A stretch of 53,857 bases of DNA, taken from positions 1 to 53,857 of the forward strand of contig CAZCME010000027.1 of NCBI GenBank assembly GCA_964499705.1. Reading direction: 5' to 3'. Shown piece after piece: positions 1 through 19,665 of the stretch. The position numbers and the translations under genes were made by a program. Source of the DNA: an uncultured bacterium. GTDB taxonomy: Bacteria > UBA8481. The notes below the pieces were generated by a model, which saw only the letters and a list, made by a program, of their open reading frames with translations, was not told the DNA's origin and did not search any database. Every line of letters starts with the position of its first letter. Within the stretch, counting starts at the first letter, position 1.

Positions 1-55
1 GTGGGAGGGGTCCCGGCGCGAGCCGGGCCCCTATCCCGATCATTCGTTAGACGAA
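1..55. repeat. Cassette-boundary element E0 (right end only, truncated by window)
   Basis: Ends ATCATTCGTTAGACGAA at 55, followed by TTCCACC as in the other copies. Confidence 0.75.
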
Positions 56-94
56 TTCCACCATCGGCACGTTGGTCGCTTCGCAGGCGGACTA

Positions 95-859
95 TCATGA
101 ATATATCATGTCCCATATCCATTGCATATATGACCCTGACCACTCAGGCTGTAAGAAAAGGATCATGTCGCATATTGCGTGCGAGATTACCAATGGAAAA
201 AGCTTGTTCGTCTTGAGATAGTACGCCGTGATGAAGATGCTTAACACGAAGGTGGAAGGGATATTGAATAGACCAGTTTCCCAGTGAATGTAAGAGAAGA
301 TGCAGGAGACTACCAAGACAATCATCGAACTGGACATGTTATAGCGACGGAAAAGAGCAACCAGCACCCCGCGATAGAGGAACTCTTCGACAACCCCTCC
401 GCCAATCGATCCGTATATCGCAATCATTGTCCGTGCTTGGATTGAGTCGGGAAGCACAGAGTGAAAACTAAACGCAGCGGGATAGGTCTGCCACGGGAAG
501 ATGCATAGAGTGAGCGCATAGAGCGTCAGAATGAGCCACGGAAACACAGCGATCCAAAACGCAGTGTGAACGAGAAGCACATTTGTTTCGCGGGTCGTGG
601 ACGGCAAAGTCAGACCGAACATGGCGGGCGAATATTTCCATTTCGAAAAGAGATAGAACCAGCATATGCCAGTAATAATGACAAATTGAATTGTATCGAC
701 TATCCAGAAGAGCAAAAGGTTTTCGCCGGTGAAGGGCAGAAGTAGTCCATTGAGCATGGGAAATGCAAGCATCGCAAAGGCGACCTTTTCCAGCCGTCGG
801 ACGACAAGTAGCGTTTCGGCATCAATCGGCAAGAACGTCGAAGTACCCGCTGTCGTCAT
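95..859 (-). CDS. CPBP-family (CAAX/Abi) intramembrane glutamic endopeptidase
   Basis: Multiple TM segments and motifs VVEEFLYRG, FSYIH, SHAICD; start moved to ATG 859 because the longer ORF runs into repeat E1. Confidence 0.85.
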   Translation of the reverse strand: MTTAGTSTFLPIDAETLLVVRRLEKVAFAMLAFPMLNGLLLPFTGENLLLFWIVDTIQFVIITGICWFYLFSKWKYSPAMFGLTLPSTTRETNVLLVHTAFWIAVFPWLILTLYALTLCIFPWQTYPAAFSFHSVLPDSIQARTMIAIYGSIGGGVVEEFLYRGVLVALFRRYNMSSSMIVLVVSCIFSYIHWETGLFNIPSTFVLSIFITAYYLKTNKLFPLVISHAICDMILFLQPEWSGSYMQWIWDMIYS

Positions 860-918
860 GATAGGGCGATAACCGCCTTCGACAATTGATGGCAAGAATA
901 TAGGCGACGCAGCGAGTC

Positions 919-1121
919 TTCGTCTAACGATGACGATTGCTGAACTGCGCGACATGAAACCAAACCATTCATAAACTATGCGCAATCATAGCAAATCGAC
1001 CTGATCCGGGCGCGCCATTTGCCGCCTCTGCAAATGGCGTGAACGGATCACTTAACAATAACCCGCGCAGTTGCGCGTAGCGACCGAAGGGAGCGAAGCC
1101 AGCAATCGTTCGTTAGACGAA
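919..1121. repeat. Cassette-boundary element E1
   Basis: TTCGTCTAACGA(TG)ACGATTGCTG ... CAGCAATCGTTCGTTAGACGAA; terminal stem with 2-nt bulge plus internal stems. Confidence 0.9.
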
Positions 1122-1145
1122 AACCACTGATGGAATGACATGATG

Positions 1146-2027
1146 CTAATGCATGCCAGTCTTTTTGACCATACCGCCCTCGACGTCGGCTAATGGATGC
1201 ATGGTGATAAAGGCGTTGCTATCATATTCGCGAACGATTGCTCGCACCCGAGAGATTTCAAGTCGAGTTACCACGCACAATAGAATGTCACGCTCTTCGT
1301 CAGTCAGACCGCCCCTGCCCCGGAATACGGTGACACCGCGCCCGAGATCCTTGGTTATTGCCAACCGAATGTCTGAACTGCGGGAACTGATGATGGTGAT
1401 GGACGTGTATTCCTCAAGACCATAGATGACAAAATTGAGAGTCTTTGCGGCGGCAAGATACGTCAGGATCGAGTACAGTGCGGCTTCGACACCGAGCACG
1501 GACATGGCTACGAGAAACAGCACTACGTTGAATCCCAATATCACATCACCAACGCGAACTATTCTAAAGCGCTTGCTGATTAGCAGAGCGGCGATTTCGG
1601 TTCCGTCCAGTACTGCTCCACCGCGTACAGCAAGGCCGATGCCTGCGCCGATAAAGAAGCCGCCGAATACTGCCGTAAGTACAAGATCCGGTGTTACATC
1701 AGGATAAGGAATAACCACCAAAGCAACCGCTAGACCCGATATTGCAAGTACGCTTCGAATGGCAAACACGCCGCTGATATGGCGATAGCCGACGATGACA
1801 AATGGAACATTGACTAGCGGGAGCCAAATGGCGAGTGGTATCGGCGTGATCTTTGAAAGTAACATAGACACACCGGTAACGCCGCCATCAATGAAATTGC
1901 TGGAGAGGAGAAATCCGTTGAGTCCCATTCCCGCCGATATGACGCCGAGGGATATGAGTAAGAAGTTGCACGTCTCCGGAAGGAATCGTGTGCGAAACGC
2001 ATGCCATCTGGTAATCTGCGTGCTCAT
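1146..2027 (-). CDS. YitT family membrane protein
   Basis: DGGVTGVS and GAVLDGTEI motifs, TM region, C-terminal GRGVT...DSNAFITM domain. Confidence 0.9.
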   Translation of the reverse strand: MSTQITRWHAFRTRFLPETCNFLLISLGVISAGMGLNGFLLSSNFIDGGVTGVSMLLSKITPIPLAIWLPLVNVPFVIVGYRHISGVFAIRSVLAISGLAVALVVIPYPDVTPDLVLTAVFGGFFIGAGIGLAVRGGAVLDGTEIAALLISKRFRIVRVGDVILGFNVVLFLVAMSVLGVEAALYSILTYLAAAKTLNFVIYGLEEYTSITIISSRSSDIRLAITKDLGRGVTVFRGRGGLTDEERDILLCVVTRLEISRVRAIVREYDSNAFITMHPLADVEGGMVKKTGMH

Positions 2028-2193
2028 CGGGAAGTATCACGGGCTGAGGGCGGCGGAGGGATAGGTTTGCCGCATGACTGACAGGGAACGGTGTCGGCCC
2101 GACGAGATTTGTCGACCATCTGCGTGCGCTTGCAACTTGGACAAGTGCGCTTCAGATGAAATACGGTTGCAATAATAGCTTGGAATATTGGAT

Positions 2194-2721
2194 TCATAAT
2201 GTCATCTTTCCGAGAAGTTCGCCGAGGTCAAGTCTCCCCGTCGTCATTGCCAATTTGCCTTCCGCATCGTGCGGCCACTCCTCGGGCGGACGATCGCGAT
2301 AAAGCTCGACTCCGTTTCCATCGGGGTCCTCGAGGTAAATCGCCTCCGAAACGCCGTGATCTGATGCTCCCGTGATGGGATATCCCGCTTCGATCAACCG
2401 CCTTACGGCGCGCGCCAGTTCGCGACGGTCCGGATAGAGAATCGCTACATGATAAAGCCCTGTCGACCGAGGAGGCGGAGCCGCGCCGTCCGAACTTTCC
2501 CATGTATTGAGACCGATGTGATGATGATATCCGCCTGCCGAGAGGAATGCGGCGCCGGGATAACGCTGTTGAACTTCGAAACCGAGGAGATCGCGCCAGA
2601 ACGAGAGCGACCGATCAAGATCGGAGACTTTAAGATGAACATGCCCGATCCGGACACTGGGATGAATCCTTGCGGATTGGGGCGAAGGGTCCGCAACGTC
2701 AGCTGCCATGTGGTTCGTCAT
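2194..2721 (-). CDS. VOC/glyoxalase family protein (CatE-like)
   Basis: IGHVHLKVSDL, GGYHHHIGLNTW, GLYHVAIL, DHGVSEAIYLEDPDGNGVELYRD. Confidence 0.9.
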   Translation of the reverse strand: MTNHMAADVADPSPQSARIHPSVRIGHVHLKVSDLDRSLSFWRDLLGFEVQQRYPGAAFLSAGGYHHHIGLNTWESSDGAAPPPRSTGLYHVAILYPDRRELARAVRRLIEAGYPITGASDHGVSEAIYLEDPDGNGVELYRDRPPEEWPHDAEGKLAMTTGRLDLGELLGKMTL

Positions 2722-2786
2722 CGCCTGTCATCTGGAAAAGCGAAGATGCAGAAGAATGGGAAACTATACAGCAACGACACCGACGC

Positions 2787-2979
2787 TTCGCCTAACGATT
2801 CAGTTTGTCGAACGTTTTGCACGGCGCGTCGCGTGCGGCATGCCAATAACCTACCCTGGATCATGACCATTACATTATCACAACCGATCCCGCGCAAGAA
2901 GCATTAGCACGCGGCGTGACGTGCAAAAGGTTGCGCGGAGGAGCGAAGCGACGTAGCCGACAAACTGACGTTAGACGAA
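2787..2979. repeat. Cassette-boundary element E2
   Basis: TTCGCCTAACG(AT)TCAGTTTGTCG ... CGACAAACTGACGTTAGACGAA. Confidence 0.9.
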
Positions 2980-3034
2980 AACCAGCGTAGGTAATCATTA
3001 TACCTATCGCGCGCATACCTATGGTAAATGGGTG

Positions 3035-4522
3035 CTAATAGACAGGTATACCCTGTCCCGATCTTTTGCCGTCGAAAGTGGGTATAAGCCGTAAGTTATC
3101 TACCGGTTTAGAAATGTCTCGTGGCGGCGCAAACTGTTTCTCAATGAGGTTGCGTAATATTTCGGCCCAATCAGAGGGACTTCCGTCTAGGATGCTAACG
3201 TGGAGAGGATTGTCGGGGTCATAATCTACAGCATCGAGTGGGTTCATCTCATAAAGCTGAGCCAAAGCGCTGCGCGCTTCGGATTCTCTTTCCAACTTTG
3301 TATAACATTCTCCGATGCGATACAGCTGCATGCGAACATCATATAATGACGTATCGCCCACACTGAATGCTCGTTCGTAGGCGCGTACGGCTTCAGAATA
3401 ATTGGCGGGGGGCGGACGATACACGCGTAAGTCGCCTAAGCGCGCCCAGAGCCTCCAATTATCAGGATCATTTCGAATAGTGCGAGAGACTAAATCAACG
3501 GCGCGGTCGAGTTCACCATTATGAGCTAATGAATAGCTAAAATCTAAGACGACCCCAGACATTGCAGATGGGGCGTGAGGTTCATCTTGTAGTAATTTTA
3601 TCGTGATTTCAAAATGTTCGATAGAATCATCTAAGGTGCATAATATAGGACCAATCCAGCCGCCGTCACCCTCATTCCATTCACGCGATTGATTAGCCAA
3701 GTGAAGCTGATAACAAACTCGAGCCAGCGAATAGTGCGCTTGGGCACTGTTCGGAAATGCGCGCACATACCTTTCTGCCGAATGAAGAGCATCGGGAGCA
3801 TCCCTTCGTGATGCGGCTTCTCTATGCGCGGTTAAGAACGGCAGTTCGTCCACGTTTAGCGAAAAGCTTGATCTGAGTGGACGTAGCTGTCGGCATTCAA
3901 TGTTCCTTATATACTTTGACGGAATAGCAAAGTTGATAGATTGACCGGCGAGAATAGAGGACGTAACAATGCCTATTACTCGTCCATTACGGTTTATGAT
4001 CGGCGAGCCACTCGATCCAGGTGAAATCGGCGCTGTGATTTGCAATTGACTGCGACTATTATGGGTACGAACACCAGAAACTATCCCGGTAGAAACTGTG
4101 CCTTGAAGGCCAAGTGGACTGCCAATTACAACGATTTCTTCTCCTATGGTCGGGTCAATCGTCTCGAGTCTAAGATAAGGAAGTCTGTCGCCGTCGATTT
4201 TTAATATCGCGAGGTCGCTATTCTTATCATAACCATAAATGCCAGAGACCTGGTAACGAACACCGTTGCTTGCGATTGCCCATATCGTCGTTCCTCCAGC
4301 CAGTGCATGAAAATTTGTTATCAGCTTACCGTCCTGAGAAATCAAGAAACCAGTGGCTGAACTAACTTCGTTGCCGCTTTCGCCAAAAACCTCTAGTAGG
4401 TACACGGCGTTCTTGGCAGAACCAGCAAGGCGTGCTGCATTGAGTGAATGGCCATTGGTGCTTGTGAAGGCGACTAGGAAAAGGAATCCGAGCAGCCTGA
4501 ATCTGGTCGTGCGTATTAACAT
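3035..4522 (-). CDS. Secreted trypsin-like (S1C) serine protease with TPR-like C-terminus
   Basis: Signal peptide; triad motifs TNFHAL, DLAILK, PGSSGSP; helical TPR-like repeats. Confidence 0.85.
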   Translation of the reverse strand: MLIRTTRFRLLGFLFLVAFTSTNGHSLNAARLAGSAKNAVYLLEVFGESGNEVSSATGFLISQDGKLITNFHALAGGTTIWAIASNGVRYQVSGIYGYDKNSDLAILKIDGDRLPYLRLETIDPTIGEEIVVIGSPLGLQGTVSTGIVSGVRTHNSRSQLQITAPISPGSSGSPIINRNGRVIGIVTSSILAGQSINFAIPSKYIRNIECRQLRPLRSSFSLNVDELPFLTAHREAASRRDAPDALHSAERYVRAFPNSAQAHYSLARVCYQLHLANQSREWNEGDGGWIGPILCTLDDSIEHFEITIKLLQDEPHAPSAMSGVVLDFSYSLAHNGELDRAVDLVSRTIRNDPDNWRLWARLGDLRVYRPPPANYSEAVRAYERAFSVGDTSLYDVRMQLYRIGECYTKLERESEARSALAQLYEMNPLDAVDYDPDNPLHVSILDGSPSDWAEILRNLIEKQFAPPRDISKPVDNLRLIPTFDGKRSGQGIPVY

Positions 4523-4735
4523 AAGTAATTCATAGTATAGAACTTAGTGCCTGATGTCGCCATTGTACATGCGATATGGAATTATGGGTAAGAGGAATCT
4601 TTGCACGCGAAGATGAATGGAAAATTGGATGGGCGCGCAATCTGCGGATAGGAAATAGCACGGTGTAAACGAGAGGGCTGCCATCGATATTCCTACGACG
4701 AGTCATTTTACCAATTCTGGAAGGAGGCGGAGGGG

Positions 4736-5545
4736 TCATTCCGCATGATCCTGATAATCGCCTATTGCTTGAATTAGTTCGCGTACTTCTGTGGGGCGAT
4801 AAATCCGGGGATTCCATGACAAGTGACATTGGGTGCCAATGGATGCCCAGTGGCCGTCGAGAACGATGTAGTCGCAATAGGCGAGAGGAACAACCGAATG
4901 GAAATAGTCCATAGCATGGTTTCTTGTAATCGGGAAATCCTGTTTACAGATTAGCTCTAATATCTTTCCGTTGGTAATATATGCGCGACGGTTGTTGGCG
5001 ACAGCAGAGACGTCGAATGCCTTTCCTTGAAGGCGCGGATTCGCTTTCCACTGAGCACGAGCTTTTGTGAGGAATCGGACAATGTCATCCGAAACAGCTA
5101 TTCTGCGCGGGGTTATCGAATCCTGATATTCCTTCTCGGCAACGGCATCGAAGATTGGGGCGATGGACATAGTGGTCGCGTCGATGAAATGACGGAACTC
5201 CTTCAGGAAACTGATGTCAAACCACACCTCATTTTCCCCCGGGCATAATTCGCGATCTGACACTGCCCCCGGCGTGGATTCAATAGGAATCCAATGTTGC
5301 CCCACACCAGCTATCACATTCTTGATCTTCATCAGGGAATCTGGACTGCTTGCCGAAAACTCCACCAAGTTCATTATGGAAACAGCGAGCGTACCATTCT
5401 TTGCGACGGCTGAAACCAGGTCTGCGAGAAGAGAGATGTCCTTTTCAAGGAGTATGAGCCCACAGTTATCAAGATAGACAAGAGGGCGACGACAAGGAAA
5501 AGAATAGGTCAGAATGCCCTCACTTTTCAAGGAGAGTTCAGGCAT
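4736..5545 (-). CDS. Hypothetical protein, possibly PIN-like nuclease fold
   Basis: ATG 5545 with GGAGG upstream; VYLDN near the N-terminus and DYFH...YCDYIVLD near the C-terminus resemble PIN-like acidic motifs. Confidence 0.55.
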   Translation of the reverse strand: MPELSLKSEGILTYSFPCRRPLVYLDNCGLILLEKDISLLADLVSAVAKNGTLAVSIMNLVEFSASSPDSLMKIKNVIAGVGQHWIPIESTPGAVSDRELCPGENEVWFDISFLKEFRHFIDATTMSIAPIFDAVAEKEYQDSITPRRIAVSDDIVRFLTKARAQWKANPRLQGKAFDVSAVANNRRAYITNGKILELICKQDFPITRNHAMDYFHSVVPLAYCDYIVLDGHWASIGTQCHLSWNPRIYRPTEVRELIQAIGDYQDHAE

Positions 5546-5752
5546 GAGGCCTCCGGCGCTGGCCTTCGCCTGGGACTCGCGATGAGCAACACCTCTCGTT
5601 GAGCTGGGCGGGGCGCTTGCAGAACGGTGTGCGTCGAGGTGAATCATCAAGCGATATTCGGAACGATGCCGTCATCAACATAGAGTGCTGCAAGCGCCAT
5701 GCACGGCGGGCGATGCCAGACAAAGGGGAGTAATCATGCTCTCCCGCGGGTC

Positions 5753-5948
5753 TTCGTCTAACGATGACGATGGCCGAACCTGGAGCCCGGCGCGGCGAAT
5801 GCGACACGATGACAACCCCTCGCGAATCATCGCCACGATCTTATCATGAGCTATCGCCAACTAGAAACCCCTGCATTCGCCGTGACGGGCGGAAGGTTGC
5901 GCGGAGCGGCCAACAGGCCGCGTAGCCGGCCATCGTTCGTTAGACGAA
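5753..5948. repeat. Cassette-boundary element E3
   Basis: TTCGTCTAACGA(TG)ACGATGGCCG ... CGGCCATCGTTCGTTAGACGAA-CT-CCACC. Confidence 0.9.
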
Positions 5949-6023
5949 CTCCACCGTAGGCTTCGTTCCGAGCCCTTGGGCGCATGCATTCAGCAAATCC
6001 GCCTATCGACATAGTCAGTCGAT

Positions 6024-6052
6024 TTGCAAGCAATCGTAAAATCAGAGACAAT
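6024..6052 (+). promoter_or_regulatory. Candidate sigma70 promoter of the PIN toxin module
   Basis: TTGCAA-17 bp-GACAAT ending 6 nt before ATG 6059. Confidence 0.4.
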
Positions 6053-6058
6053 ACGCTT

Positions 6059-6544
6059 ATGAGCACCGTGTATCTGGAAACAACGATTCCGAGCTACCTG
6101 TCCAAAGCAGCGAGCACTGATCAAGTGTTCGAAGTGCATCGGTCGCTGACGTGGCAGTGGTGGAAAGAGTCGCGGCGCGAGTACGACTGTTTCGTTTCAG
6201 AGGCTGTTATCAAGGAACTCTCCCTTGGAACGCCTGACGCGGCTTCGCGCAGACTTGCATTCGTGTCTGAAATTCCGATATTGGCGGTAATGCCGGAAAT
6301 TGAGACGATGGCGCGTGAGTATCTTGGTGCCCTGCGTCTCCCGGACAAGGCGATTATTGACGCGGTCCACCTGTCTTACGTTATCAGGTATCGAGTAGAC
6401 TATCTCTTGACGTGGAACTGTAAGCATCTCGCGAACGGTGTGGTGAGACGCCGACTGCAGGAGTATAATGTCCCTAGAGGCGTTCATCTGCCGGTCATCG
6501 TGACGCCAGAAGAGTTACTGACGTCGAATATGGAGGAATTGTGA
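6059..6544 (+). CDS. PIN-domain (VapC-like) toxin
   Basis: MSTVYLETTIPSYL...SEAVIKEL...DAVHLS...YLLTWNCKHLAN...IVTPEEL. Confidence 0.85.
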   Translation: MSTVYLETTIPSYLSKAASTDQVFEVHRSLTWQWWKESRREYDCFVSEAVIKELSLGTPDAASRRLAFVSEIPILAVMPEIETMAREYLGALRLPDKAIIDAVHLSYVIRYRVDYLLTWNCKHLANGVVRRRLQEYNVPRGVHLPVIVTPEELLTSNMEEL

Positions 6545-6723
6545 TGAGCGAAGATTCCGTGGTGAAGGAAGTCCGAGAGGCGCGTGATGCGTTCGCGAAA
6601 GAGTGCAAGTATGACCCGCACATTATTCTGGCGCGCCTTCGAGAAGATGAGACCAAGCATGGCGAGCGCCTTGTGACGCCCGACGCATTCCAGAAGAAGT
6701 ATCCGACGCGCAATATCGCGTAG
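6541..6723 (+). CDS. Small protein coupled to the PIN gene, putative antitoxin
   Basis: Overlaps the PIN stop codon; EDSVVKEVREARDAFAKECKYD resembles small partners of this PIN group. Confidence 0.6.
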   Translation: MMSEDSVVKEVREARDAFAKECKYDPHIILARLREDETKHGERLVTPDAFQKKYPTRNIA

Positions 6724-6748
6724 ATTCGTACAGTTCTTCATGAACATA

Positions 6749-7240
6749 TTAGCGCCTGCACTCCATTAGCACGGCCTCGCCCCATCGTGTGATAATTGGA
6801 CCGGCAACGAGGATAAAGCCTGCCTTCTCGTATGCTCTCCGCGCACGCATGTTATTAGGATTGGGATCAGTGCCAACAGTTGGAGCGCCCTGCGCAAACA
6901 ATCGTTGCACGTGCGCGCGAACAAACGCGGTGCCATGTCCCTTGCCCAACATGTCGGCCTCCCCAATATACTGATCAATCCCGCGCGCCCCTGACGGCAA
7001 GTACGAGAACGGGTGAGGATCCCAACCATGCACGTCATAGTCTTGAGCAAAGGCGAACGGTCGGTCGTTATGTTCCACGATCCACATGGAAATTCGAGAA
7101 TCCGCTAGTTTCTCTGTTTCCTTCTCGATTTCGGGCGCCCCCCACCACTCGACTACATGTTCTGCGGCTCGCCAGCCAGCCAAGAGCGGCAAATCCGATA
7201 CAATGACAGGACGAAAGCAGTATGCATCAGTCGTGTTCAT
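6749..7240 (-). CDS. GNAT acetyltransferase, AAC(6')-like subfamily
   Basis: HVVEWWG, RGIDQYIGEADMLGKGHG, TDPNPNNMRARRAYEKAGF. Confidence 0.85.
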   Translation of the reverse strand: MNTTDAYCFRPVIVSDLPLLAGWRAAEHVVEWWGAPEIEKETEKLADSRISMWIVEHNDRPFAFAQDYDVHGWDPHPFSYLPSGARGIDQYIGEADMLGKGHGTAFVRAHVQRLFAQGAPTVGTDPNPNNMRARRAYEKAGFILVAGPIITRWGEAVLMECRR

Positions 7241-7275
7241 GGCGTTGACCGGCCATACGATGAGCCTAGCGGGAC

Positions 7276-7359
7276 TTCGTCTAACGTTTCAATAGCCGCG
7301 CATGCACTTCGGCTATTGTGCCGTATCAGGGCATTAGGCGAAGTGCAACTTCGCCTATT
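7276..7359. repeat. Short variant element E4 resembling the array-head site
   Basis: TTCGTCTAAC, hairpin CAATAGCCG/CGGCTATTG, then palindrome ATTAGGCGAA-GTGCAAC-TTCGCCTATT. Confidence 0.7.
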
Positions 7360-7500
7360 TTTTGCAATAGATGAGACAAGAAAAAAATAATTATTCACGT
7401 TGCTTTCCCCCAGCTGAAAGTCATAAATTAAAATTTACCACAGTTCCCATAGATGATTCAAGGGCGGGATCGATCTATGCTGGAGTGCGGCCACGAAAAC

Positions 7501-7815: not shown

Positions 7816-7824
7816 TTCCTCCTT

Positions 7825-11651: not shown

Positions 11652-11653
11652 AT

Positions 11654-12580
11654 TTATTTTCCTCCTGTAAATCCTGATGAGAGATATTCGCTAATACGGT
11701 AAATGTCATCCTTCGTGGTAATATTTCCGCAATTCAGCAGGTAGAGATCTTTCAATACTCCAGTCATGTAGAGCCGTAGAAATTCGATTCCCGGCTTTTT
11801 ATCGAGTTTCGGTAGCTGCGTTCGAAATAGTGACATGAGTGTGATGAATGATATGGGAATCCATTGCGGTCCCCCACATTTGGATTTCGTTTCGGGCATC
11901 CTTCCTTGATCCGGAGTAAGAAAGACAAGGGCATGATGGTCCGAGAAAGAGATGCGTTCTTGAAGCAAGTTCTCATACCTCTCACACTGATCCTCTCCTT
12001 CGTCGGCCTCGACTTTGGCTTCCACGATCACCATCCATTCTTCAATCTTGTCGTCGGGCAGAGTCCATTTCCCGCGCATGAAGATATCGAGTCGATCACG
12101 GGTTTCCCCGCTGATTAACTCACACTCGATGCGCACGTCGTGCAGCTGTGGCTCGTGCGGCATTTCCATAAATATTTTCCCTAAAAATACACGGAGAAGT
12201 GCCTCTTTGAAACCATGGTCTTCATCGGGATTCATCAACCAACCAAGCGTGCGAGTATGGGCGGTTTCGCGAAGACCTAAATCGAGCGTGCCAAAGAGAC
12301 TGATTCGGCAGCGAAGGGGATCGTTGAGAGGTAGGTGTTCATACCAATCCGAACCGCCATCTAGCTTGTCGATCAACGTCAACTTCATGGTCTCAAACAG
12401 GCTCGCTAATTCTGAGTAATCATGATCCGTCAGTGTCTCGAGAAATTCACAGTCACGTGAAAGAGTTTTACTGACGACGTAAAGGTCGCTGACAAGCGCC
12501 TCGACATCTACACGCGTGGGATTGGGCGCGTATGCCAGATCGAGGTCGAAAATGAATTGCTTGGATATAGAGAGATTCAT
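11654..12580 (-). CDS. PD-(D/E)XK nuclease family protein
   Basis: ETAHTRTLGWLMNP...HGF, RLDIF, IVEAKV...EGEDQCERY. Confidence 0.8.
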   Translation of the reverse strand: MNLSISKQFIFDLDLAYAPNPTRVDVEALVSDLYVVSKTLSRDCEFLETLTDHDYSELASLFETMKLTLIDKLDGGSDWYEHLPLNDPLRCRISLFGTLDLGLRETAHTRTLGWLMNPDEDHGFKEALLRVFLGKIFMEMPHEPQLHDVRIECELISGETRDRLDIFMRGKWTLPDDKIEEWMVIVEAKVEADEGEDQCERYENLLQERISFSDHHALVFLTPDQGRMPETKSKCGGPQWIPISFITLMSLFRTQLPKLDKKPGIEFLRLYMTGVLKDLYLLNCGNITTKDDIYRISEYLSSGFTGGK

Positions 12581-12713
12581 GTGAGAACTATATGCTCCAA
12601 CGGTATTGTAGAAAGATTTTATTGTGGGCGAAAGCAGCGCGAGTCACACAAAAGGGGCGTGCACGGCGGGCGCCGCCAATCAAAGGAATGATATCAAGCT
12701 TCGTCTCAGAGAC

Positions 12714-12849
12714 TTCGCCTAATGTATAAGGTTCCGAAGCCGACGCGGAGCGCCACGGAAGAGAGGGGAACCGACGCTTCATCAGGTTCACCGAACGGTG
12801 GCGTGGAGCGTCGGGTTGCGCGCCAGCCGGAAAAGCGACGTCGGGCGAA
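12714..12849. repeat. Degenerate cassette-boundary element E7
   Basis: TTCGCCTAAT...TTCCGAAG...GGCGTG...GTTGCGCG...CGGAA...GTCGGGCGAA. Confidence 0.65.
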
Positions 12850-12941
12850 CTGACCGCCTTCCGTGATCGGGAGCTAATGAGAGAACGTAGCCCAAGCGTG
12901 CAACGAAACGCGCCCATCAGGCAAACCGACACGGAGGTCGG

Positions 12942-13138
12942 TTTGCCTGACGATTCGAATGGCCGAACTTGCAGACCGGCGTGACGTTTGCGGAATGACA
13001 ATGACCATCGCATATCAATTCAACTTCACAACTACACGAGCCATCATGATATAACAACCTCAGCAAACGGCATGACGGTTTGCAAGTTAGCGGGAGCGCC
13101 CGCCAGGGCGCGGACGCGGCCATTCGGCATTAGACGAA
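12942..13138. repeat. Cassette-boundary element E8
   Basis: TTTGCCTGACGATTCGAATGGCCG ... CGGCCATTCGGCATTAGACGAA-GC-CCACC. Confidence 0.8.
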
Positions 13139-13291
13139 GCCCACCCTTGATATGAATCAAGCTCAACCCACGAGAAGTTCATTCAAGCGCTCCGATCATG
13201 CATAAGTGCAGGCAACGGACTGAAATCTGCAGATACACGCAAACCCGTCATATTATTTTCACAATAGAGTAAGTGGATGCCCGTTGCCATA

Positions 13292-14146
13292 TCACTTTTG
13301 AAGGGACTCCAGCCGCCGCTTGCCATCATATGTCCATTTTATACGTACCCGCTGACCGATCTCGACGCGACCGACAGAGGCGGCAAATGTCTTCGTGTCC
13401 GCAATACCGCCGTTACGAGAAGTAAGCTTAGGAACGTAGCGTGTCGCAAATCCGGTATCGGAACGAATATCAATCCAATACTCACCGTCCCAATATTTGC
13501 CAATATCTGTGACAATACCTGATGTTCTACCAGATGTGGCGCGAGGTGTGAGAGTCTCAATCTTCACCATCCATGGCATCAATTCATTGTAATCGTATGA
13601 TTTCCATGAGAGGCGAATTATGCCTTCTGGAGGAATCTTTCCCATAAATTGCATTAGCGCCCTTCTGGCTGCCCTATGTTCGGGCAATTCTTCTCCCACG
13701 TAATAGGGATTGTCAGGAACAGGTGATAACCGATCTGCTACGAATTCAACCATGAGATGCGTACCTTCTTCAGAAATATTGCGGCGAACAGAGGAAGCGA
13801 TACAAATGATGCATTCAGAGTCGATTGTATAGTCTTTGAGACCGGCGTGATCGCGATCGCCCGTTTGACGGATGGCAACTCCCCGGGAAGTAGACTCAGT
13901 TTCAGCTTTCAATGTAATCGAACCAGGAAATAAGCCCGTCCCCACGTTTAGTTCTGTGAGTATTCCAACTATGCAGGCGTCCCATGACTCATTTGGCGTG
14001 GCGTCTTTCGGCGCGTCGTATCGTTTGGATTTATCAATGTCAGCAAGCTCTGATGCTGAAGCCCTTGTAGCAACCATGCCAATGAACAATATCGATACTG
14101 TGTATACCAACACATATCTGGACCGACGACGGTGATTGTCTACCAT
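13292..14146 (-). CDS. Hypothetical secreted protein
   Basis: 284 aa, N-terminal signal-like segment, GGAGG upstream. Confidence 0.65.
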   Translation of the reverse strand: MVDNHRRRSRYVLVYTVSILFIGMVATRASASELADIDKSKRYDAPKDATPNESWDACIVGILTELNVGTGLFPGSITLKAETESTSRGVAIRQTGDRDHAGLKDYTIDSECIICIASSVRRNISEEGTHLMVEFVADRLSPVPDNPYYVGEELPEHRAARRALMQFMGKIPPEGIIRLSWKSYDYNELMPWMVKIETLTPRATSGRTSGIVTDIGKYWDGEYWIDIRSDTGFATRYVPKLTSRNGGIADTKTFAASVGRVEIGQRVRIKWTYDGKRRLESLQK

Positions 14147-14175
14147 ATTTTCCTCCTAATTATAACGATTTGAGA

Positions 14176-14325
14176 TCATTGATGCTGCCAACAATAACCG
14201 TCAGCGCCAGCACTTCGCGAACAACGATCGCCTCGCCTAGTAATAGCAAGACAACGACCATCACTTTCATTGCGGGCGGGCCGTCCATAATTATAATTAT
14301 GGCTATTCCTCGCCATAATCCACAT
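14176..14325 (-). CDS. Small Cys3-His peptide ORF, not in the ORF track; could be the frameshifted tail of the 369-aa gene
   Basis: Translates MWIMARNSHNYNYGRPARNESDGRCLAITRRGDRCSRSAGADGYCWQHQ*, homologous to the C-terminus of 9478-11034. Confidence 0.6.
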   Translation of the reverse strand: MWIMARNSHNYNYGRPARNESDGRCLAITRRGDRCSRSAGADGYCWQHQ

Positions 14326-15412
14326 ATAGAATCTTTATTACTGGTAATCGCCTAACAAAGCGCCCTTCGCCGGTGATGATAGTTTTCATACCAGCGATTT
14401 TCGCAATTATTGTACCGTAGAAATCTGATAGATCGCTGTTAGCATATCTTGAGTTGGCCGCTGATAATATGAAGCCACTTCCGAAAAGATACATATTCTT
14501 ATTATCGGTAAATGGCTCAGATATTTGCCCCTGTAACTGGATAGTTTTACCGTTGAAACCTGAAAGATCTGCAAGAATATCTTCCGGATCAACTTCAGAC
14601 GGCATGAAATAGAATGTTGCAACATCGAGTGAATCAATCCGAGATGGATTTATTTTGCGCCTAATTTTAGCGGCTATTGATTTTCGAGATGCGCCCTCCT
14701 CCATACCGGAGGCAAATGCTATCGCTTTGACAAAGTCACCTTCTGCAAGGGCGCGTTGCGCTTCTACAAGATCCTCTTTTGACTCTTCATGAAGCCCTTT
14801 GCGAAAGGCTACTTTTGCTCGTTCGAGATAGACCAGAGCTTTCTCGGCTTCAATTGAGCCTGAGTAGCGCGAGTTCAACTCGGCGCATAATTCTTCCAAA
14901 TCCGACACCGAACCGAGATCTTCATACCAACTCGCAAGACGAAGAAGCGCTTTAAGATGACGACGGCGCAAGCCCGTCGCTGACGTATCTGAAACATGAA
15001 TGCTTACAGGTTTTCCAAATGCCGTTCTCTCGCTCGATGCGATGTATGACCCATTCAAGCAACAAAGGTCATCGCCGGTCAGAATCATGCTAAGATTCTC
15101 AGTATCTCGCATTACTATAGTCGCGAACGTCATGGCGCGAGTTAGACCACGCTCAGCAATCCGTTTATCAATATATTCGCGAAGCTGATACTGGCTGGAT
15201 AAATTTAGCTCGTCGGAATCAATTCGGATTATCACGTCGCCCGCTTCCAAGTCCGCCACGGGGTTCAATATTCCATTTGGTTTCGGGATACTAGTTACTA
15301 AGAAATCAGCAGTCACACATGTCGGAATTGATAAAATCATGAGAGTCAGGCAAATTCCTACCAATAATGTCCTTATCACAATATCACGCCTCCTTAAAAT
15401 CGTCAGTGTCAA
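14303..15412 (-). CDS. Hypothetical secreted protein with PDZ-like segment
   Basis: Signal-like N-terminus, LEAGDVIIRID, helical region; true start may lie slightly downstream. Confidence 0.6.
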   Translation of the reverse strand: MTLTILRRRDIVIRTLLVGICLTLMILSIPTCVTADFLVTSIPKPNGILNPVADLEAGDVIIRIDSDELNLSSQYQLREYIDKRIAERGLTRAMTFATIVMRDTENLSMILTGDDLCCLNGSYIASSERTAFGKPVSIHVSDTSATGLRRRHLKALLRLASWYEDLGSVSDLEELCAELNSRYSGSIEAEKALVYLERAKVAFRKGLHEESKEDLVEAQRALAEGDFVKAIAFASGMEEGASRKSIAAKIRRKINPSRIDSLDVATFYFMPSEVDPEDILADLSGFNGKTIQLQGQISEPFTDNKNMYLFGSGFILSAANSRYANSDLSDFYGTIIAKIAGMKTIITGEGRFVRRLPVIKILYVDYGEE

Positions 15413-16064
15413 ATCGGAATCCGCAATAACGGCATTTTACGGCCTCGTATTTGATCATTTCTGCACACTCAGGACATTTTTTGTTAGGTTCGCCACTCTC
15501 CACCGGCATTGGCATCGACAGAACGGATACCTTTGCCTCTCGCGTTTTATGCCACTGCTTATCTATCAATGAAAAGGCAAGGTTGACGCCTGCTGCCGCG
15601 GGGAGATACTCTTTAAAAAATGATGAGTTATTTCCTGATGCCCGCACAAATACATTTCCACCCTGTTCAACGCCGGTAAGATCACTGAAGAGGTTTTGCT
15701 CCACGACCATATGCCCCGTGGCAAGCATGCTGGTGGCGATTACTCGCCGCTCAGTAATGACAGAGATACCGTAAACGAGCGGACTACGGAATGATCTTGG
15801 CACTTCGCGCCAAAAGACGCCAATCGGTGGCTCCTTTCTCAAGTCGAGCCCCGGGATTCGCTGTGCGAGAATTACAGGAATATATGGTGGCAATCCTCGC
15901 GCGGTCGGTTCGAAATGCCAGACAACGGAGCTGAAGCAACCGCATCTGAATATTTTTCTGGTTGACATATTATTAGATATATTCCGGTTTCGCGCTCGAA
16001 TCAACATGTAATATCCACCCAATACTGGTGAAATCATAATAAGTATCAGAATAATAGCTACCAT
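15384..16064 (-). CDS. Membrane-anchored protein with C-terminal zinc ribbon
   Basis: N-terminal TM; KKCPECAEMIKYEAVKCRYCG. Confidence 0.75.
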   Translation of the reverse strand: MVAIILILIMISPVLGGYYMLIRARNRNISNNMSTRKIFRCGCFSSVVWHFEPTARGLPPYIPVILAQRIPGLDLRKEPPIGVFWREVPRSFRSPLVYGISVITERRVIATSMLATGHMVVEQNLFSDLTGVEQGGNVFVRASGNNSSFFKEYLPAAAGVNLAFSLIDKQWHKTREAKVSVLSMPMPVESGEPNKKCPECAEMIKYEAVKCRYCGFRFDTDDFKEA

Positions 16065-16167
16065 CTATCTAAACCCTCCGTAAACGAGATACACCTCGCC
16101 GAGTAGACTTGAACCGAGTGGCCGATATCACCACAGAGGGGATGTTATCAAGCGTCGGCACTGACAC

Positions 16168-16306
16168 TTCGCCTAACGATTGTGATTTCCGAACTTGCGG
16201 ATTGGCGCGACGGTTGCCGCTTTTGCAACCGGCGTGACGATTCGCAAGTTGCGCGGAAGCGGCCCGCTTCTGGCCGCTGTAGCCGGAAATCAGCGCGTTA
16301 GGCGAA
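16168..16306. repeat. Cassette-boundary element E9 (short)
   Basis: Arms nearly identical to E6: TTCGCCTAACGATTGTGATTTCCGAACTT ... CGGAAATCAGCGCGTTAGGCGAA-CT-CCACC. Confidence 0.9.
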
Positions 16307-16346
16307 CTCCACCGTTGAGAGATATATAACTTCGGGCACCCGCCCA

Positions 16347-16589
16347 TCACAACAAATATCTCCCGATTTTGAGAGATCCGTGAAATACACCAATAACATC
16401 TACATCCCGATCTTGCTTGATTAAATATGCAATTCGATAATGGCCGTACAGAAGAATCCGAATGTGGCGATCAGTGATATCCCAATACCGATATCCAGAT
16501 TCGGAGAAGTCTCGCAATATTTGAGAGTGGTCGTATATCGATTGGATAAGGTGGAGAGCCACGTCTGGGGTCGCGGCCTCGGCCATCAT
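16347..16589 (-). pseudogene. ParE/RelE-family toxin, N-terminally truncated
   Basis: LRDFSESG...RILLYGHYRIAYLI...VDVIGVFHGS; expected N-terminal strand/helix is missing and no antitoxin is adjacent. Confidence 0.65.
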
Positions 16590-16593
16590 CCTC

Positions 16594-16674
16594 CTCTTAC
16601 GTTGCCGATAAGCGGCCCGAAACGGCGGCGCAACGCGCCGCTGTTGGGGGTCCGTGTTCATCGACGGGTTAGAC
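16594..16674 (-). other. Canonical-type attC site
   Basis: Minus strand GTCTAAC-CCGTCGATGAACACGG...CCGCTTATCGGCAAC-GTAAGAG; R'' overlaps the TAA stop of the upstream gene; 81 bp; R' deviates from GTTRRRY. Confidence 0.75.
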
Positions 16675-17259
16675 CTGTGCTTGCGTAAGACGAATATCGA
16701 CTTCTCGGTCGACGTATTTCCATTCCTCTGACGCACGCAGTTCGGAAAGCAGCCTGTTGAACTCAACCTCATGAATTGGCGCGTATTCGAACCAATTCAG
16801 AAAATCGAACGGTTCATTCTCTGAGAGGTCCCGGCAGTGGTGGAGCTTGCGCGCTACTGCAGGCAAGTACTGAAGCCCGATTTGGACGTGCTTCGACTGT
16901 TCGAAAACGCTCCGGCGTTCGTCTTGCGTGAGATCCCACCAAGCTGCGTTCTTCCGGATCGGTATTAGCGCAGCGCACGTTGCTTCTGGGCGCGCCAGAC
17001 CTTGCTGCTTCGCTACAATTTCATTCTTCTCTGCGCGCATGACATATCGTTCATTGCTGGTTATTCCACGAAGTATCCAGGGTGCATTGGTTTCAGACTG
17101 CACCTCTGAAGCGGATACGACGTTGAGCCTTTTGGCTTCAGGCAGGGGCTCGCCAACTCTGGTTTCGGCTCTGACAATCCGCCAAGGGCCAATGTCTGCG
17201 CCGACGAATGCAAATAATCGTGTATTCGCCATCAAGTTCTGTTCAACGTATCCAGCCAT
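16669..17259 (-). CDS. Chlorite dismutase-family (Cld/DyP-like) heme protein
   Basis: LIPIRKNAAWWDLTQDERR...H...LPAVARKLHHCRDL...FDFLNWFEY...EEWKYVDRE; GAGGAG RBS. Confidence 0.85.
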   Translation of the reverse strand: MAGYVEQNLMANTRLFAFVGADIGPWRIVRAETRVGEPLPEAKRLNVVSASEVQSETNAPWILRGITSNERYVMRAEKNEIVAKQQGLARPEATCAALIPIRKNAAWWDLTQDERRSVFEQSKHVQIGLQYLPAVARKLHHCRDLSENEPFDFLNWFEYAPIHEVEFNRLLSELRASEEWKYVDREVDIRLTQAQV

Positions 17260-17372
17260 AACACTCTCCTCGAAGAATATTGTCTATCCTAATTACAAGC
17301 TACACAACAATGCGTCCAATAAATGCATCTCACCCGCAGGTAGGTCGATATTCAGTCGCCTCCGCGGAGCGG

Positions 17373-17574
17373 TTCGACTAACGTTGTGGCTGTCCGAACC
17401 GGGCGGCGGCACCCAGATCGAGAATCAAAAGCTGACAAGCACCAGGGCAAATGGACAGGGGCGGGCGCGTCGCTTGCGTCTTTTTGCAAGCGGCGTGAAC
17501 GACCCATCATCGCCACGCCCGGTTGCGCGAAACGACCGCAGGGAGTGGAGCCGGACAGCCGCACGTTAGACGAA
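17373..17574. repeat. Cassette-boundary element E10
   Basis: TTCGACTAACGTTGTGGCTGTCCG ... CGGACAGCCGCACGTTAGACGAA-CCC-CCACC. Confidence 0.9.
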
Positions 17575-18074
17575 CCCCCACCAATAAATGCCGTCAAGAT
17601 ATTACGGTTCCTTTCATGAGCGAAGAGCATCAAGAAATACGTTTAGCATTACTTTTTCTCAATGGCAAGAACAACAATTGTAGAAACAATGTAAAATAAT
17701 TCCCCAGCGCTATCAACATTTAATGCAGCCACGGTCATCGCGGTTTGATAGACAACGCGAAGCCACCTTCTTTTCCTGTTCGGCCGCGCGCAACGACGAG
17801 GAAGCGGTGCCGATAGTTAAACAAACGGACCTACGCCACTTACGGCTTCCATCGCGGTCAATGCGATTCATGAAGCATGTCCGATGTTATGGCCACTCGC
17901 GGTAAAGAAGCCATCATCAACAGTTGATGAGAGAGTATAAAACTCATTCGCATGGAATCCACGGTTGCGCATGCCGCGATCATTGGCATTTGATAGATGT
18001 CTTGGAGCAGCTTCCTCGCTGTATTGGAAGAGCTTTCGCATCTGGACTACGCGCCATGATGCATCACTGTGCGC

Positions 18075-18190
18075 TTCGTCTAACGACTGGTCTTCCGACC
18101 GTTGGAGCGGCCATACTTGGTAAGAATCCGCATGGACGGTTGGATACACCCGAGATTTTACAGGTTTGGGCGAACATATGTTCGCCCAAA
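18075..18190. other. Candidate array-head (attI-equivalent) site
   Basis: Last TTCGTCTAAC core before the recombinase, without the usual right arm; followed by a perfect 26-bp palindrome TTTGGGCGAACATATGTTCGCCCAAA (18165-18190). Confidence 0.6.
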
Positions 18191-18309
18191 GGGGGTTATT
18201 GGGGGTGGGGCGGGCGTTGGAGGAGTATGCCGGATTGCTCTCATTTGGCGTGGCGAGAGGGGCGGAGATTCTTGGTTCAATATAGTCAATGTATTTCATT
18301 TTTGCTTGG

Positions 18310-19665
18310 TCATGGACGATGAATTCGCTGGGGGAAGGGTGGTTGGGGGGCGGCATGATGGATAGGATTGATGCCGTTTGCCTGGTTGTTCGATTGTGAT
18401 GGGACTGGATGGGCGGTTGTTCTTGTCTTGGTTGCCTGCGCTGCGGCCGCCGTTTTGCTGTTGGTCGCGGGCGCAGTCACGGGCGAGGTTTCACTGTCGC
18501 TGTCGTGGTATCTGTTGTCGGTTCTTCTCCGCTTGTGCTGGTCGGGTTCGTTCATGGTGGCTTCCAGGGGGCTTTCGATCGCGGCGATGCTGGCGGCGCT
18601 TACGTGGGTGTAGATTTCTGTGGTCTGGCTGGAGCTGTGGCCCAGCATCTCCTGGATGAAGCGGATGTCGGTGCCGGATTCGAGGAGGTGGGTGGCGAAT
18701 GAATGGCGGAGTGTGTGGGGCGTGATCTTTTCGTCCTTGATGCCCATTCTCTGCTGGATGATTTCCTGGAGTCGCTTCTGGATGGCGCGCTCCGTGATGT
18801 GGTGGTGTTCCTCGCTCTTTCTGGATCTGGGGAAGATCCATGTGGTGGCGCCTATGGCCTGGATGTGCTGCTGGATCGCCTTGTAGGCGGTCGGGGAGAG
18901 CATGACGAAACGGTCCTTGCTGCCCTTGGCCTGGCGGACCCTGATCGTGCCTCGCTCCGGGTCGAAGTCGGTGATTTTCATCCTGACCAGTTCGCTTACT
19001 CTCAGGCCCGCGGAATAGGACAGCATCAGGATGGCGCGCTCGTAGGTGCCCCTGGCTTCTTCGATCATGCTGGCGATGAATCTTCTGCTTTTCACGACGG
19101 GGAGACGTCTTTCTTTCCTGGGCCTGGGGAAGTTGTCAGGAACCAGGGGTGTTGCGTGGACTTCGTTGAAGAGGATCTTCAATGAGCAGATGGATTGGTT
19201 CACGTAGGAACGCGACGCTTGTCGCGTTGTGATCAGGGTGTTGATGTACGCCCTGATGTCTTCCGTTGTGTATGTTGCGGGGGCCTTGTTCGTTTGTTCC
19301 AGGAATCGTTTGGCATGGTTCAGATACTCCTTGATGGTCTTGGGGCTGTAGACCTTCATCTTCAAGTGGGTACGAAATCTGTCGATGGCTTCTATCTGGG
19401 GCCTGGTCAGGCCGATGGTTTCGTCAAGACCCCTTTTCCATTCCCGGAAGGCTGGATGTACCATGATGTTGGCGTTGGTTCGCACCTTGCGTAGAAACTC
19501 CAAGAGTTGTTCGCTTTCCCTAGGAAGGCTCCAGAGCCGCTCCGCGTCGTGCCGCTTGACACCTGGCATGCCGCGGAGCTGCGCCTCGAATGCTGGCGAG
19601 GCCTTGATGCCGATTCTTCCGGCGCCACCTCCAGGACCTAACCAGATCTGCCCCCGGCTCACCAT
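18310..19665 (-). CDS. Tyrosine recombinase (integron-integrase-like, lacking the IntI-specific insertion)
   Basis: SAM-like YSPKTIKEY domain; catalytic motifs AGLRVSE, KGSKDR, HTLRHSFATHLLESG, LGH, TEIYTHV; low-complexity C-terminal tail. Confidence 0.92.
   Translation of the reverse strand: MVSRGQIWLGPGGGAGRIGIKASPAFEAQLRGMPGVKRHDAERLWSLPRESEQLLEFLRKVRTNANIMVHPAFREWKRGLDETIGLTRPQIEAIDRFRTHLKMKVYSPKTIKEYLNHAKRFLEQTNKAPATYTTEDIRAYINTLITTRQASRSYVNQSICSLKILFNEVHATPLVPDNFPRPRKERRLPVVKSRRFIASMIEEARGTYERAILMLSYSAGLRVSELVRMKITDFDPERGTIRVRQAKGSKDRFVMLSPTAYKAIQQHIQAIGATTWIFPRSRKSEEHHHITERAIQKRLQEIIQQRMGIKDEKITPHTLRHSFATHLLESGTDIRFIQEMLGHSSSQTTEIYTHVSAASIAAIESPLEATMNEPDQHKRRRTDNRYHDSDSETSPVTAPATNSKTAAAAQATKTRTTAHPVPSQSNNQANGINPIHHAAPQPPFPQRIHRP

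Follow-up and report, generated by a model that had tools for sequence, protein, structure and literature searches.

The DNA considered here is contig C27 (positions 1 to 53857, hereafter the window) of a 4.67-Mb assembly (45 contigs, 96% complete) of an uncultured bacterium from groundwater. Its left part carries an array of long imperfect palindromes that resemble integron attC sites and alternate with unrelated cargo genes, and the array ends beside the gene of an intact tyrosine recombinase, P0001, which is related to the integron integrase IntI and lacks the IntI insertion. Judged from sequence comparisons, the locus is probably an integron-like cassette-capture system run by an insertion-less relative of IntI.

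The decamer TTCGYCTAAC and its complement GTTAGRCGAA, which an earlier note on this DNA had given as the boundary motifs TTCG(T/C)CTAAC and GTTAG(A/G)CGAA, occur at 15 exact sites in the window, all at positions 46 to 18084. Shuffled windows are expected to hold 0.10 to 0.13 such sites, and 15 were reached in none of 100 shuffles. Across the entire assembly, 15 of the 16 exact cores lie inside this array (the remaining one is on contig C15), as do all strong matches of the covariance model described below, so that genome-wide scatter in the manner of repetitive extragenic palindromic (REP) sequences or miniature inverted-repeat transposable elements (MITEs), a possibility raised in the earlier note, is ruled out. 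The inner seven letters of the cores (GYCTAAC and GTTAGRC) conform to the integron attC consensus RYYYAAC/GTTRRRY, and paired cores form the ends of the imperfect palindromes. The GC content is 46 to 52% over positions 1 to 18000, compared with 57 to 64% in the rest of the window and 60.9% in the genome.

The array comprises eight full elements (E1 to E3 and E5 to E9; 139 to 210 nt), a 67-nt variant (E4), a degenerate copy, a copy cut by the contig start (E0), and a left-arm-only site (E10) (Table 1). The nine complete elements of 136 to 210 bp counted previously, E10 among them, are thereby reduced to eight; the partial E0 and the short variant E4 were recovered by their cores, their folds, and their matches to R1, a covariance model that we built from the eight full elements, and the degenerate copy is an addition to that list. 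The training elements score 135 to 196 bits on the plus strand, values that are high because R1 was built from them; a far weak match in the window lies at 53032 to 53077 (11 bits, E of 0.011). Seven of the eight full elements measure 193 to 210 nt and E8 measures 139 nt. Classical attC sites are about 55 to 150 nt long, a range met only by E4 and E8. At E0, the array probably continues beyond the contig start.

In the RNAalifold consensus of the eight elements, the R-box helix is followed by an internal loop, an L-box helix of 9 to 10 bp, and a three-way junction, from which a long variable stem and, on the 3' arm, a short conserved side hairpin extend. The R box spans 11 bp and is conserved in sequence, and the L box is conserved in structure only. 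Covariation was assessed in 17 elements from four genomes, using a MAFFT alignment made independently of R1. The consensus fold contains 28 pairs, 21 of which show compensatory changes; paired cells amount to 93.7%, compared with 75.2% after shuffling, and none of 500 shuffles reached the observed value in any of five measures. When the pairing partners were slid by one to three columns, the paired cells fell to 30 to 41%. Compensatory changes are present in eight of the nine L-box pairs, with pairing kept, and the R box is nearly invariant. The fold of the elements is under selection, and the elements show the pattern of classical attC sites, in which the cores are read by sequence and the stem is read by structure.

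The polarity of the elements is constant. In every element, the spacer on the plus-strand 5' arm is one or two bases longer than that on the 3' arm, which bears the side hairpin (30 to 45 nt). None of the elements folded here has single bulged bases in its L box; the extra spacer bases and the side hairpin are present instead. The cargo is antisense to the model strand of the elements, both in the window and in the arrays of three other loci (G003:C1, G002:C98, and L054; see below). In classical attC sites, the strand that recombines is the bottom strand, which runs antisense to the cassette genes and carries the extrahelical bases on its 3' arm. If this rule applies here, the plus strand would correspond to the bottom strand, with the side hairpin, by analogy, at the place of the classical extrahelical bases. 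Core complementarity between neighboring elements is uninformative about the direction of crossover, since both directions predict the same pairs and one base dominates.

It is conceivable that the elements are structured repeats between genes that serve a different purpose (as terminators, RNA elements, or REP-like sequences) and came to lie near a recombinase gene by chance, since they occur at the 3' ends of genes, form stable hairpins, and owe their covariation to a structure that covariation alone cannot assign to DNA rather than RNA. We regard this explanation as highly improbable. In each genome, the elements occupy a single locus or a few clustered places only; they possess integron-type cores and bound low-GC, nonsyntenic cargo; an Rfam search of the whole window at gathering scores returned no family; and element subtypes are common to different genera, while the neighboring genes are not.

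At the right end of the array, E10 ends in a GTTAGAC core 225 nt past the stop codon of the recombinase gene, in line with the previous statement that the array ends about 120 to 230 bp from the 3' end of an intact tyrosine recombinase. Because E10 consists of a left arm only, lacks a right core and right arm, and has no R1 match at an E of 1 or below, it is not a tenth element and is better read as an attI-like half-site. The site is partly conserved in another genus of the phylum (G003), with which its region has the block ACGGT..TCGTTAGAC in common. A perfect palindrome (TTTGGGCGAACAT and ATGTTCGCCCAAA) separates the half-site from the recombinase stop codon; a terminator and a binding site are both possible roles for it.

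A stretch of about 38 nt (GGRATGWTATCAAGC...CTTCGCCTAA) is conserved just outside the left core of three elements (2758 to 2795, 12685 to 12722, and 16139 to 16176). On the cargo strand, it forms the first part of the next cassette, and it could serve as a leader or promoter common to several cassettes.

The recombinase and its family

P0001 is transcribed toward the array and co-oriented with the cassettes, an arrangement known from "inverted integrase" integrons such as that of Treponema denticola, in which the integrase gene is co-oriented with the cassettes. The protein consists of an N-terminal beta-alpha module (residues 1 to 90), a SAM-like domain (95 to 173), a catalytic domain (195 to 357), and a low-complexity tail of about 85 residues, and it matches the Pfam families Phage_int_SAM_4 and Phage_integrase (PF00589, E of 3.1e-41). 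The catalytic residues R222, K247/K250, H317, R320, H343, and Y352 are invariant in alignments with its relatives.

The best NCBIfam match of P0001 is the integron integrase model TIGR02249, with 213.1 bits against a cutoff of 265, and this match falls into two stretches (profile positions 2 to 180 and 224 to 314). A true IntI included for comparison (locus L059) scores 487.8 bits in a single stretch. The other NCBIfam scores are likewise below their cutoffs (XerA [NF040815], 211.1 versus 220; XerC, 170.1 versus 335; XerD, 167.3 versus 329.6). VchIntIA (2a3v), a member of the family that also gives the best PDB sequence match, aligns over both the SAM-like and the catalytic domains: residues 98 to 268 of P0001 correspond to 10 to 181 and residues 286 to 368 to 238 to 318, leaving 56 IntI residues to face 17, so that about 39 residues of the IntI insertion (the I2 region around patch III) are absent. 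The split match and this deficit substantiate the earlier description of an IntI-like recombinase without the IntI insertion, and the same score and missing insertion mean that P0001 does not pass as a bona fide IntI; a pass was one of the outcomes that, according to the earlier note, would have refuted its proposal. Apart from the insertion, P0001 differs from IntI by its extra N-terminal module (about 90 residues) and its C-terminal tail.

The spacing between the GKGxKxR and HxLRH motifs is bimodal among 80 loci retrieved with an alignment of the family, with about 100 residues in 22 (true IntI), 58 to 65 residues in 52, and no call in 6; in P0001, it is 64 residues. TIGR02249 matches above the cutoff are absent from the genome itself and from the four other species genomes of the phylum. 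The genome has two further Xer-type genes (contigs C21 and C5). A single-protein scan of genome contigs with P0001 gave 65 pattern matches, none of which was confirmed.

Two quick trees without bootstraps place P0001 next to IntI. In a FastTree phylogeny of 167 core sequences, the 22 insertion-bearing proteins lie on one side of a branch with a support of 100, and P0001 falls outside this group, in a clade with the closest proteins, P0002 to P0005 (support of 99). In an IQ-TREE phylogeny of 58 rows, for which the Xer genes of this genome served as the root, a long branch (length of 0.63; SH-like approximate likelihood ratio test [SH-aLRT] value of 99) splits 53 rows from the Xer-type rows, and these 53 divide into 11 IntI sequences (support of 99) and 42 insertion-less rows (support of 88), which include P0001, the recombinase of locus L054, and those of other array-linked loci. 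Because of this placement apart from the Xer rows, the recombinase is regarded as IntI-like rather than Xer-like, and by sequence it appears to fall in an insertion-less sister group of IntI. The trees give no sign of a former insertion in its lineage, and they would be compatible with the insertion-less group being either a sister group of IntI or an ancestral grade from which IntI arose.

Archaeal XerA (NF040815; 5hxy and 4a8e), which has no insertion, aligns contiguously with residues 92 to 360 of P0001 and scores nearly as high as TIGR02249. The function of XerA is chromosome dimer resolution at one dif site, whereas P0001 is the third recombinase beside two Xer-type genes and lies at a cassette array. 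Another explanation would be that the elements are dif-like mimics, folded or duplex, that are moved by the host XerC/XerD in the manner of integrative mobile elements exploiting Xer (IMEX) or of pdif modules, in which case a third recombinase would not be needed. The R box, spacer, and L box do resemble a two-arm core site, the genome does encode the two further Xer-type proteins, and the use of folded single strands by Xer recombinases is known for elements of the CTX-phage type, as described in passages of PMC7790495. We nevertheless consider this very unlikely, for three reasons: a dedicated recombinase and a matching half-site are conserved at the array end in two genera; 15 of the 16 exact cores lie in one array (no search for the dif site was made, and the core on C15 was not inspected); and covariation keeps the long stem and the side hairpin, for which a dif mimic would have no use. 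Known Xer-dependent modules (the CTX-phage IMEX and the Acinetobacter pdif modules) likewise employ an insertion-less Xer-type enzyme, which acts on a folded single strand or on short sites at the boundaries of gene modules, but they rely on the host XerC/XerD and on dif-like sites of 28 bp. They lack a recombinase of their own, long structured sites, and an ordered array that includes a docking site.

The N-terminal module, with its residues W38 and W45, is conserved in many relatives. An AlphaFold (AF2) model computed from a 35-row alignment has a predicted local distance difference test score (pLDDT) of 87.9. Foldseek found nothing in the PDB at an E of 1e-3 or below, with archaeal XPB N-terminal domains recurring among the weak rows. 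A VIA search, whose Z-scores for this module lie in a range that the tool calls common, placed the N-terminal domain of T4 UvsW first (Z of 6.1 and 5.9, root mean square deviation of 2.4, 63 aligned residues), with XPB (Z of 4.5 and 4.1) and the HARP domain of SMARCAL1 (4o66; Z of 3.1) at lower ranks. The Pfam HARP model matches 3 of 16 relatives weakly (best E of 0.006) and does not match P0001. HARP, UvsW, and XPB domains were reportedly united by Mason et al. in 2014 (PNAS) as one class that recognizes branched DNA. The modeled resemblance of the module to these branched-DNA recognition domains is a lead only.

Upstream of the recombinase gene, at 19712 to 19760 (47 to 95 nt from the start codon), lies a tandem CTCACT-like hexamer of about eight units, which could be regulatory or slippage prone.

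Relatives of the array within and outside the phylum

The phylum is represented by five species genomes, namely, the genome described here and four others (G001 to G004). With default filters, R1 finds elements in three of the four: in G003, four strong elements and two or three weak ones lie in the first 15 kb of contig C1; in G002, contig C98 carries two strong elements together with a short and a weak copy, and contig C114 carries one more element; and G001 has two solo elements. R1 found none in G004. Among these four genomes, only G003, a member of a different genus, has an orthologue of P0001, with 49% identity (contig C83, 109 to 1308, minus strand, with one in-frame TGA). About 55 nt past the stop codon of this orthologue, there is again a left-arm-only site (TTTGTCTAACGA, spacer, and L box), followed about 15 to 20 nt farther on by the right arm of another element and then by the contig end; the array on G003:C1 has the strand expected if the array continued from C83. 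The chromosomal site is not shared with G003, because purH, which adjoins the G003 orthologue, is on contig C10 in the present genome.

Element subtypes cross genera. E3 is 75% identical to element G003c, E7 is 71% identical to G002b, and E9 is 65% identical to G003b, whereas E3 and E8 of the same array share only 40%; this distribution fits sites that travel with their cassettes. No cargo is common to the arrays of different genera, the tblastx matches being limited to the elements and one element-adjacent block; the block at 12714 to 13010, which covers the degenerate copy and part of E7, is conserved beside an element in G002 (tblastx to L205, 3308 to 3604). The solo elements of G001 (L207, 2890 to 3104, and L208, 2447 to 2667) adjoin a gene for a D12 adenine methyltransferase and a gene for a MazF/PemK-like toxin, and they look like single cassettes outside any array.

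Outside the phylum, the same pairing recurs at locus L054 of a Firmicutes metagenome-assembled genome (229 to 4733). It has five elements of 278 to 390 nt with the nearly identical cores TTTCGCCTAACG and GTTAGGCGATG and the same spacer asymmetry, and the elements make up about a third of each repeat unit of about 1 kb. The cargo is on the opposite strand, and a divergently transcribed, insertion-less recombinase of 290 amino acids adjoins the array, which corresponds to the classical divergent layout. This recombinase matches TIGR02249 with 230.8 bits in two stretches, has no N-terminal module, and groups with Patescibacteria-type proteins next to IntI. To our knowledge, integron arrays are not usually reported from Firmicutes. 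By eye, arrays with AAC/GTT cores were also recognized downstream of insertion-less homologues at L130, L144, and L035 and on both sides of the homologue at L140. At an E of 0.01 or below, R1 matches 5 of 160 other loci (L054, L108, L112, L128, and L144; 19 to 30 bits), all with insertion-less recombinases, and none of 22 IntI loci. A detector specific for the 11-bp R box gave 35 candidates in all, with two or more in the window and in only four loci, and an earlier strict hairpin detector recovered the elements of the window and a few IntI arrays but missed known IntI arrays.

Proposed cassette capture without the IntI insertion

Given the orientation of the cargo and the polarity of the sites, an integrase is expected at the right end of the array, where the recombinase gene and the half-site lie. 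The locus would be a chromosomal integron-like platform in which the recombinase gene is transcribed toward the array, the half-site serves as the insertion point, and at least ten cassettes with minus-strand cargo each end in their own attC-like site. By analogy with integrons, the recombinase would bind the folded strand at the R and L boxes, cassettes would be excised as circles through site-by-site recombination, and the circles would be inserted at the half-site. The side hairpin and the loop asymmetry may take over the orienting role of the extrahelical bases and the I2 helix, and the N-terminal module possibly helps to read the sites. The claim in the earlier note that the recombinase and these sites form a cassette-capture system parallel to integrons draws support from the comparative evidence, which points to a platform that combines an insertion-less IntI relative with junction-type sites; this combination appears to be the new feature of the locus.

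Sedentary chromosomal integrons share with this locus (i) a tyrosine recombinase at the end of the array with an adjoining insertion site (putative here), co-oriented cassettes, and low GC content of the array; (ii) imperfect palindromes with RYYYAAC/GTTRRRY cores and an anatomy of R box, spacer, L box, and variable stem; and (iii) cargo that includes GNAT acetyltransferases, glyoxalases, toxin-antitoxin pairs, and nucleases. They differ in having the I2 helix, which the present recombinase lacks, and single extrahelical bases, in place of which the sites here, three-way junctions of 139 to 210 nt, have a conserved side hairpin; in addition, the R box is extended to 11 bp, and many cassettes contain two or three genes.

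Several observations weigh against a cassette-capture system run by P0001. The elements cluster in three of the four other genomes and, in G003, lie beside the orthologue, so that the expectation that model matches adjoin orthologous recombinases elsewhere holds there; it is not borne out in G002 (88% complete) and G001 (86%), which have elements but no recombinase orthologue detected at an E of 1e-30 or below. On contig C15 of G002 (L209, about 9460 to 9640, minus strand), an 85-amino-acid open reading frame (ORF) matches the C-terminal 60 positions (256 to 315) of TIGR02249 with 108 bits; it lies about 700 nt from the contig end and is an apparent gene remnant, and a classical-type integrase may therefore once have existed in the lineage. 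No R1-type elements are visible within 10 kb of this fragment. The cassettes are large and often contain several genes, unlike typical integron cassettes, and because the L054 recombinase has no N-terminal module, this module cannot be a general substitute for I2. The link between recombinase and array is also unquantified: a self-similarity screen for arrays, used only to choose loci for reading by eye, also responds to repeats within genes, which made it fire in 13 of 100 background windows, and a strict detector of canonical cores (two or more sites) finds arrays at 3 of 18 IntI loci, 1 of 73 insertion-less loci, and none of 80 background windows, which makes it too insensitive to measure the association, as only 3 of the 18 IntI loci were found. 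Four public DNA runs from two studies carry the stretch as contigs, in which the 11 listed joints all lie inside repeats and are ambiguous (sides of 20 to 34 nt); no recombination event was observed among these contigs, and none of the public runs listed with the stretch is an RNA run. Finally, activity is said in published work to require the insertion (Messier and Roy 2001, cited in PMC9668308; see also PMC7790495).

Some of these observations would also be explained if the array were the remnant of a classical integron, made or serviced by a canonical IntI that is now lost or unassembled, with the neighboring gene being an unrelated Xer-like gene. Clusters of attC sites without an integron integrase are termed CALIN in IntegronFinder. 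The R-box cores are indeed canonical, the array runs off the contig at position 1 with its far end unseen, and the elements of G002 and G001 without an orthologue, together with the IntI-like C-terminal fragment in G002, would fit such a history. We judge it unlikely all the same, since an intact IntI is found in none of the five genomes of the phylum, the recombinase gene and the half-site lie at the right (integrase) end and have the same layout in G003 at 49% identity, and the recombinase belongs to the sister group of IntI rather than to XerC/XerD, with L054 repeating the pairing of such an enzyme with an array. A tool that requires the IntI-specific domain would label the locus a CALIN, provided that its attC model fires; what sets the locus apart from a CALIN is the IntI-related recombinase and the half-site at the correct end, conserved in a second genus.

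If the locus is a working platform with an insertion-less enzyme, it represents a second structural solution for reading folded sites and offers a direct handle on the origin of integrons; integron surveys would then undercount cassette platforms in poorly sampled phyla, some of which they would list as orphan arrays. Both the long junction-type sites and the small recombinase should be easily accessible to recombination assays in Escherichia coli. In passages of PMC9668308, the IntI-specific domain is described as defining for integron integrases, and only six IntIs are counted in the archaeal set of that study; in passages of PMC7790495, the gain of I2 is presented as the step to single-strand recombination. 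Since this gain is seen as enabling the recombination of folded attC sites, search tools define integrons by the insertion (PMC7790495 and PMC9668308). In the full texts searched, insertion-less integrases with cassette arrays were not described; supplements of surveys, which were outside the scope of that search, might list the arrays of this phylum.

A broader proposal, to which we give a little less than an even chance, is that insertion-less IntI relatives constitute a sister or ancestral class of integrases that runs arrays of hairpin sites in many phyla, with a three-way-junction site bearing a side hairpin, and perhaps the N-terminal module, replacing the read-out of extrahelical bases by I2 in the present lineage. 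If so, such arrays will have been reported as empty or as CALIN only in integron searches, the I2 helix is no precondition for the recombination of cassettes through folded single strands, and cassette capture predates I2.

Cassette cargo and minor features

The larger ORFs between the elements, which we took as genes, are all on the minus strand (Table 1). That the elements separate unrelated cargo genes over more than 18 kb, as previously stated, is confirmed by the Pfam and PADLOC assignments and by element positions from 1 to 18084. The protease domain in the cassette ending in E2 resembles the protease part of the PADLOC system RT-Protease_XI, and the PD-(D/E)XK nuclease in the cassette ending in E6 matches the PADLOC candidate family PDC-S26 (3.1e-21); the genes of the cassette ending in E7 have no PADLOC match. 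The BrnT-like gene (weak match) and its partner in the cassette ending in E4 are likely a toxin-antitoxin pair. The interval between E9 and E10 holds no convincing ORF.

Table 1. Elements, cassettes, and recombinase gene in the window (R1 scores in bits)
Feature	Position	Strand	Evidence or remark
E0, 3' part of an element cut by the contig start	1-55	+	Core at 46-55; R1 14.8 at 1-65 (model positions 155-218)
Rce1/CAAX-type protease-like membrane protein	95-985	-	PF02517, E 2.9e-16; start codon probably further in
E1, full attC-like element, 203 nt	919-1121	+	R1 169.8 (training sequence)
Cassette ending in E1: YitT-family membrane protein (1146-2027), 57-aa ORF, glyoxalase/bleomycin-resistance-fold protein (2194-2721)	1146-2721	-	PF02588, PF10035 (YitT family); PF00903 (glyoxalase fold)
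E2, full element, 193 nt	2787-2979	+	Cores, fold, R1
Cassette ending in E2: trypsin-like protease with TPR repeats (3035-4522), 304-aa ORF (4736-5650)	3035-5650	-	PF13365 and TPR families (protease); no family matches (304-aa ORF)
E3, full element, 196 nt	5753-5948	+	Fold, R1; nearest relative G003c, other genus
Cassette ending in E3: GNAT acetyltransferase (6749-7240), two small ORFs	6197-7240	-	PF13523
E4, short attC-like variant, 67 nt, same R-box cores	7276-7342	+	Fold; R1 25.3
Cassette ending in E4: BrnT-like toxin (7825-8109), 104-aa partner	7501-8109	-	PF04365, E 2.8e-5, under gathering score
E5, full element, 199 nt	8224-8422	+	Fold; R1 196.1
Cassette ending in E5: HNH-motif protein	8515-9039	-	Weak: PF01844, E 4e-4; ZorE-like HNH, 2.7e-5 (PADLOC)
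E6, full element, 210 nt	9060-9269	+	Fold, R1; 74-84% identity to E1
Cassette ending in E6: three co-directional genes (518 aa, 206 aa, 308-aa PD-(D/E)XK nuclease)	9478-12580	-	PF14281, E 1.9e-17
Degenerate element copy directly before E7	about 12713-12849	+	R1 17.3 at 12704-12861
E7, full element, 197 nt, slightly degenerate cores	12942-13138	+	Fold, R1; nearest relative G002b
Cassette ending in E7: three genes (284 aa, 369 aa, 226 aa with zinc ribbon)	13292-16064	-	PF10571 only
E8, full element, short central stem, 139 nt	16168-16306	+	Fold; R1 134.7
Cassette ending in E8: ParE-like ORF (weak), chlorite-dismutase-fold ORF	16347-17259	-	PF05016, E 5e-4; PF06778, E 1.2e-9
E9, full element, 202 nt	17373-17574	+	Fold, R1
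E10, attI-like half-site: R box and L box like an element left arm, local hairpin	18075-18140	+	Sequence, fold
Perfect 13+13-nt palindrome between half-site and recombinase stop	18163-18192		Sequence, fold
Tyrosine recombinase P0001, 451 aa	18310-19665	-	Transcribed toward the array, co-oriented with cassettes

A segment of 116 nt occurs twice (9477 to 9592 and 14175 to 14290; 82% alike), in two different cassettes, each time at the 3' end of a gene or beyond it. Beyond the recombinase gene, the window contains ordinary genes, including those for a rhomboid protease, a major facilitator superfamily (MFS) transporter, a glycosyltransferase, DsbD, and a peroxiredoxin. An ORF of more than 6,238 residues occupies positions 35140 to 53856 on the minus strand and runs off the contig end.

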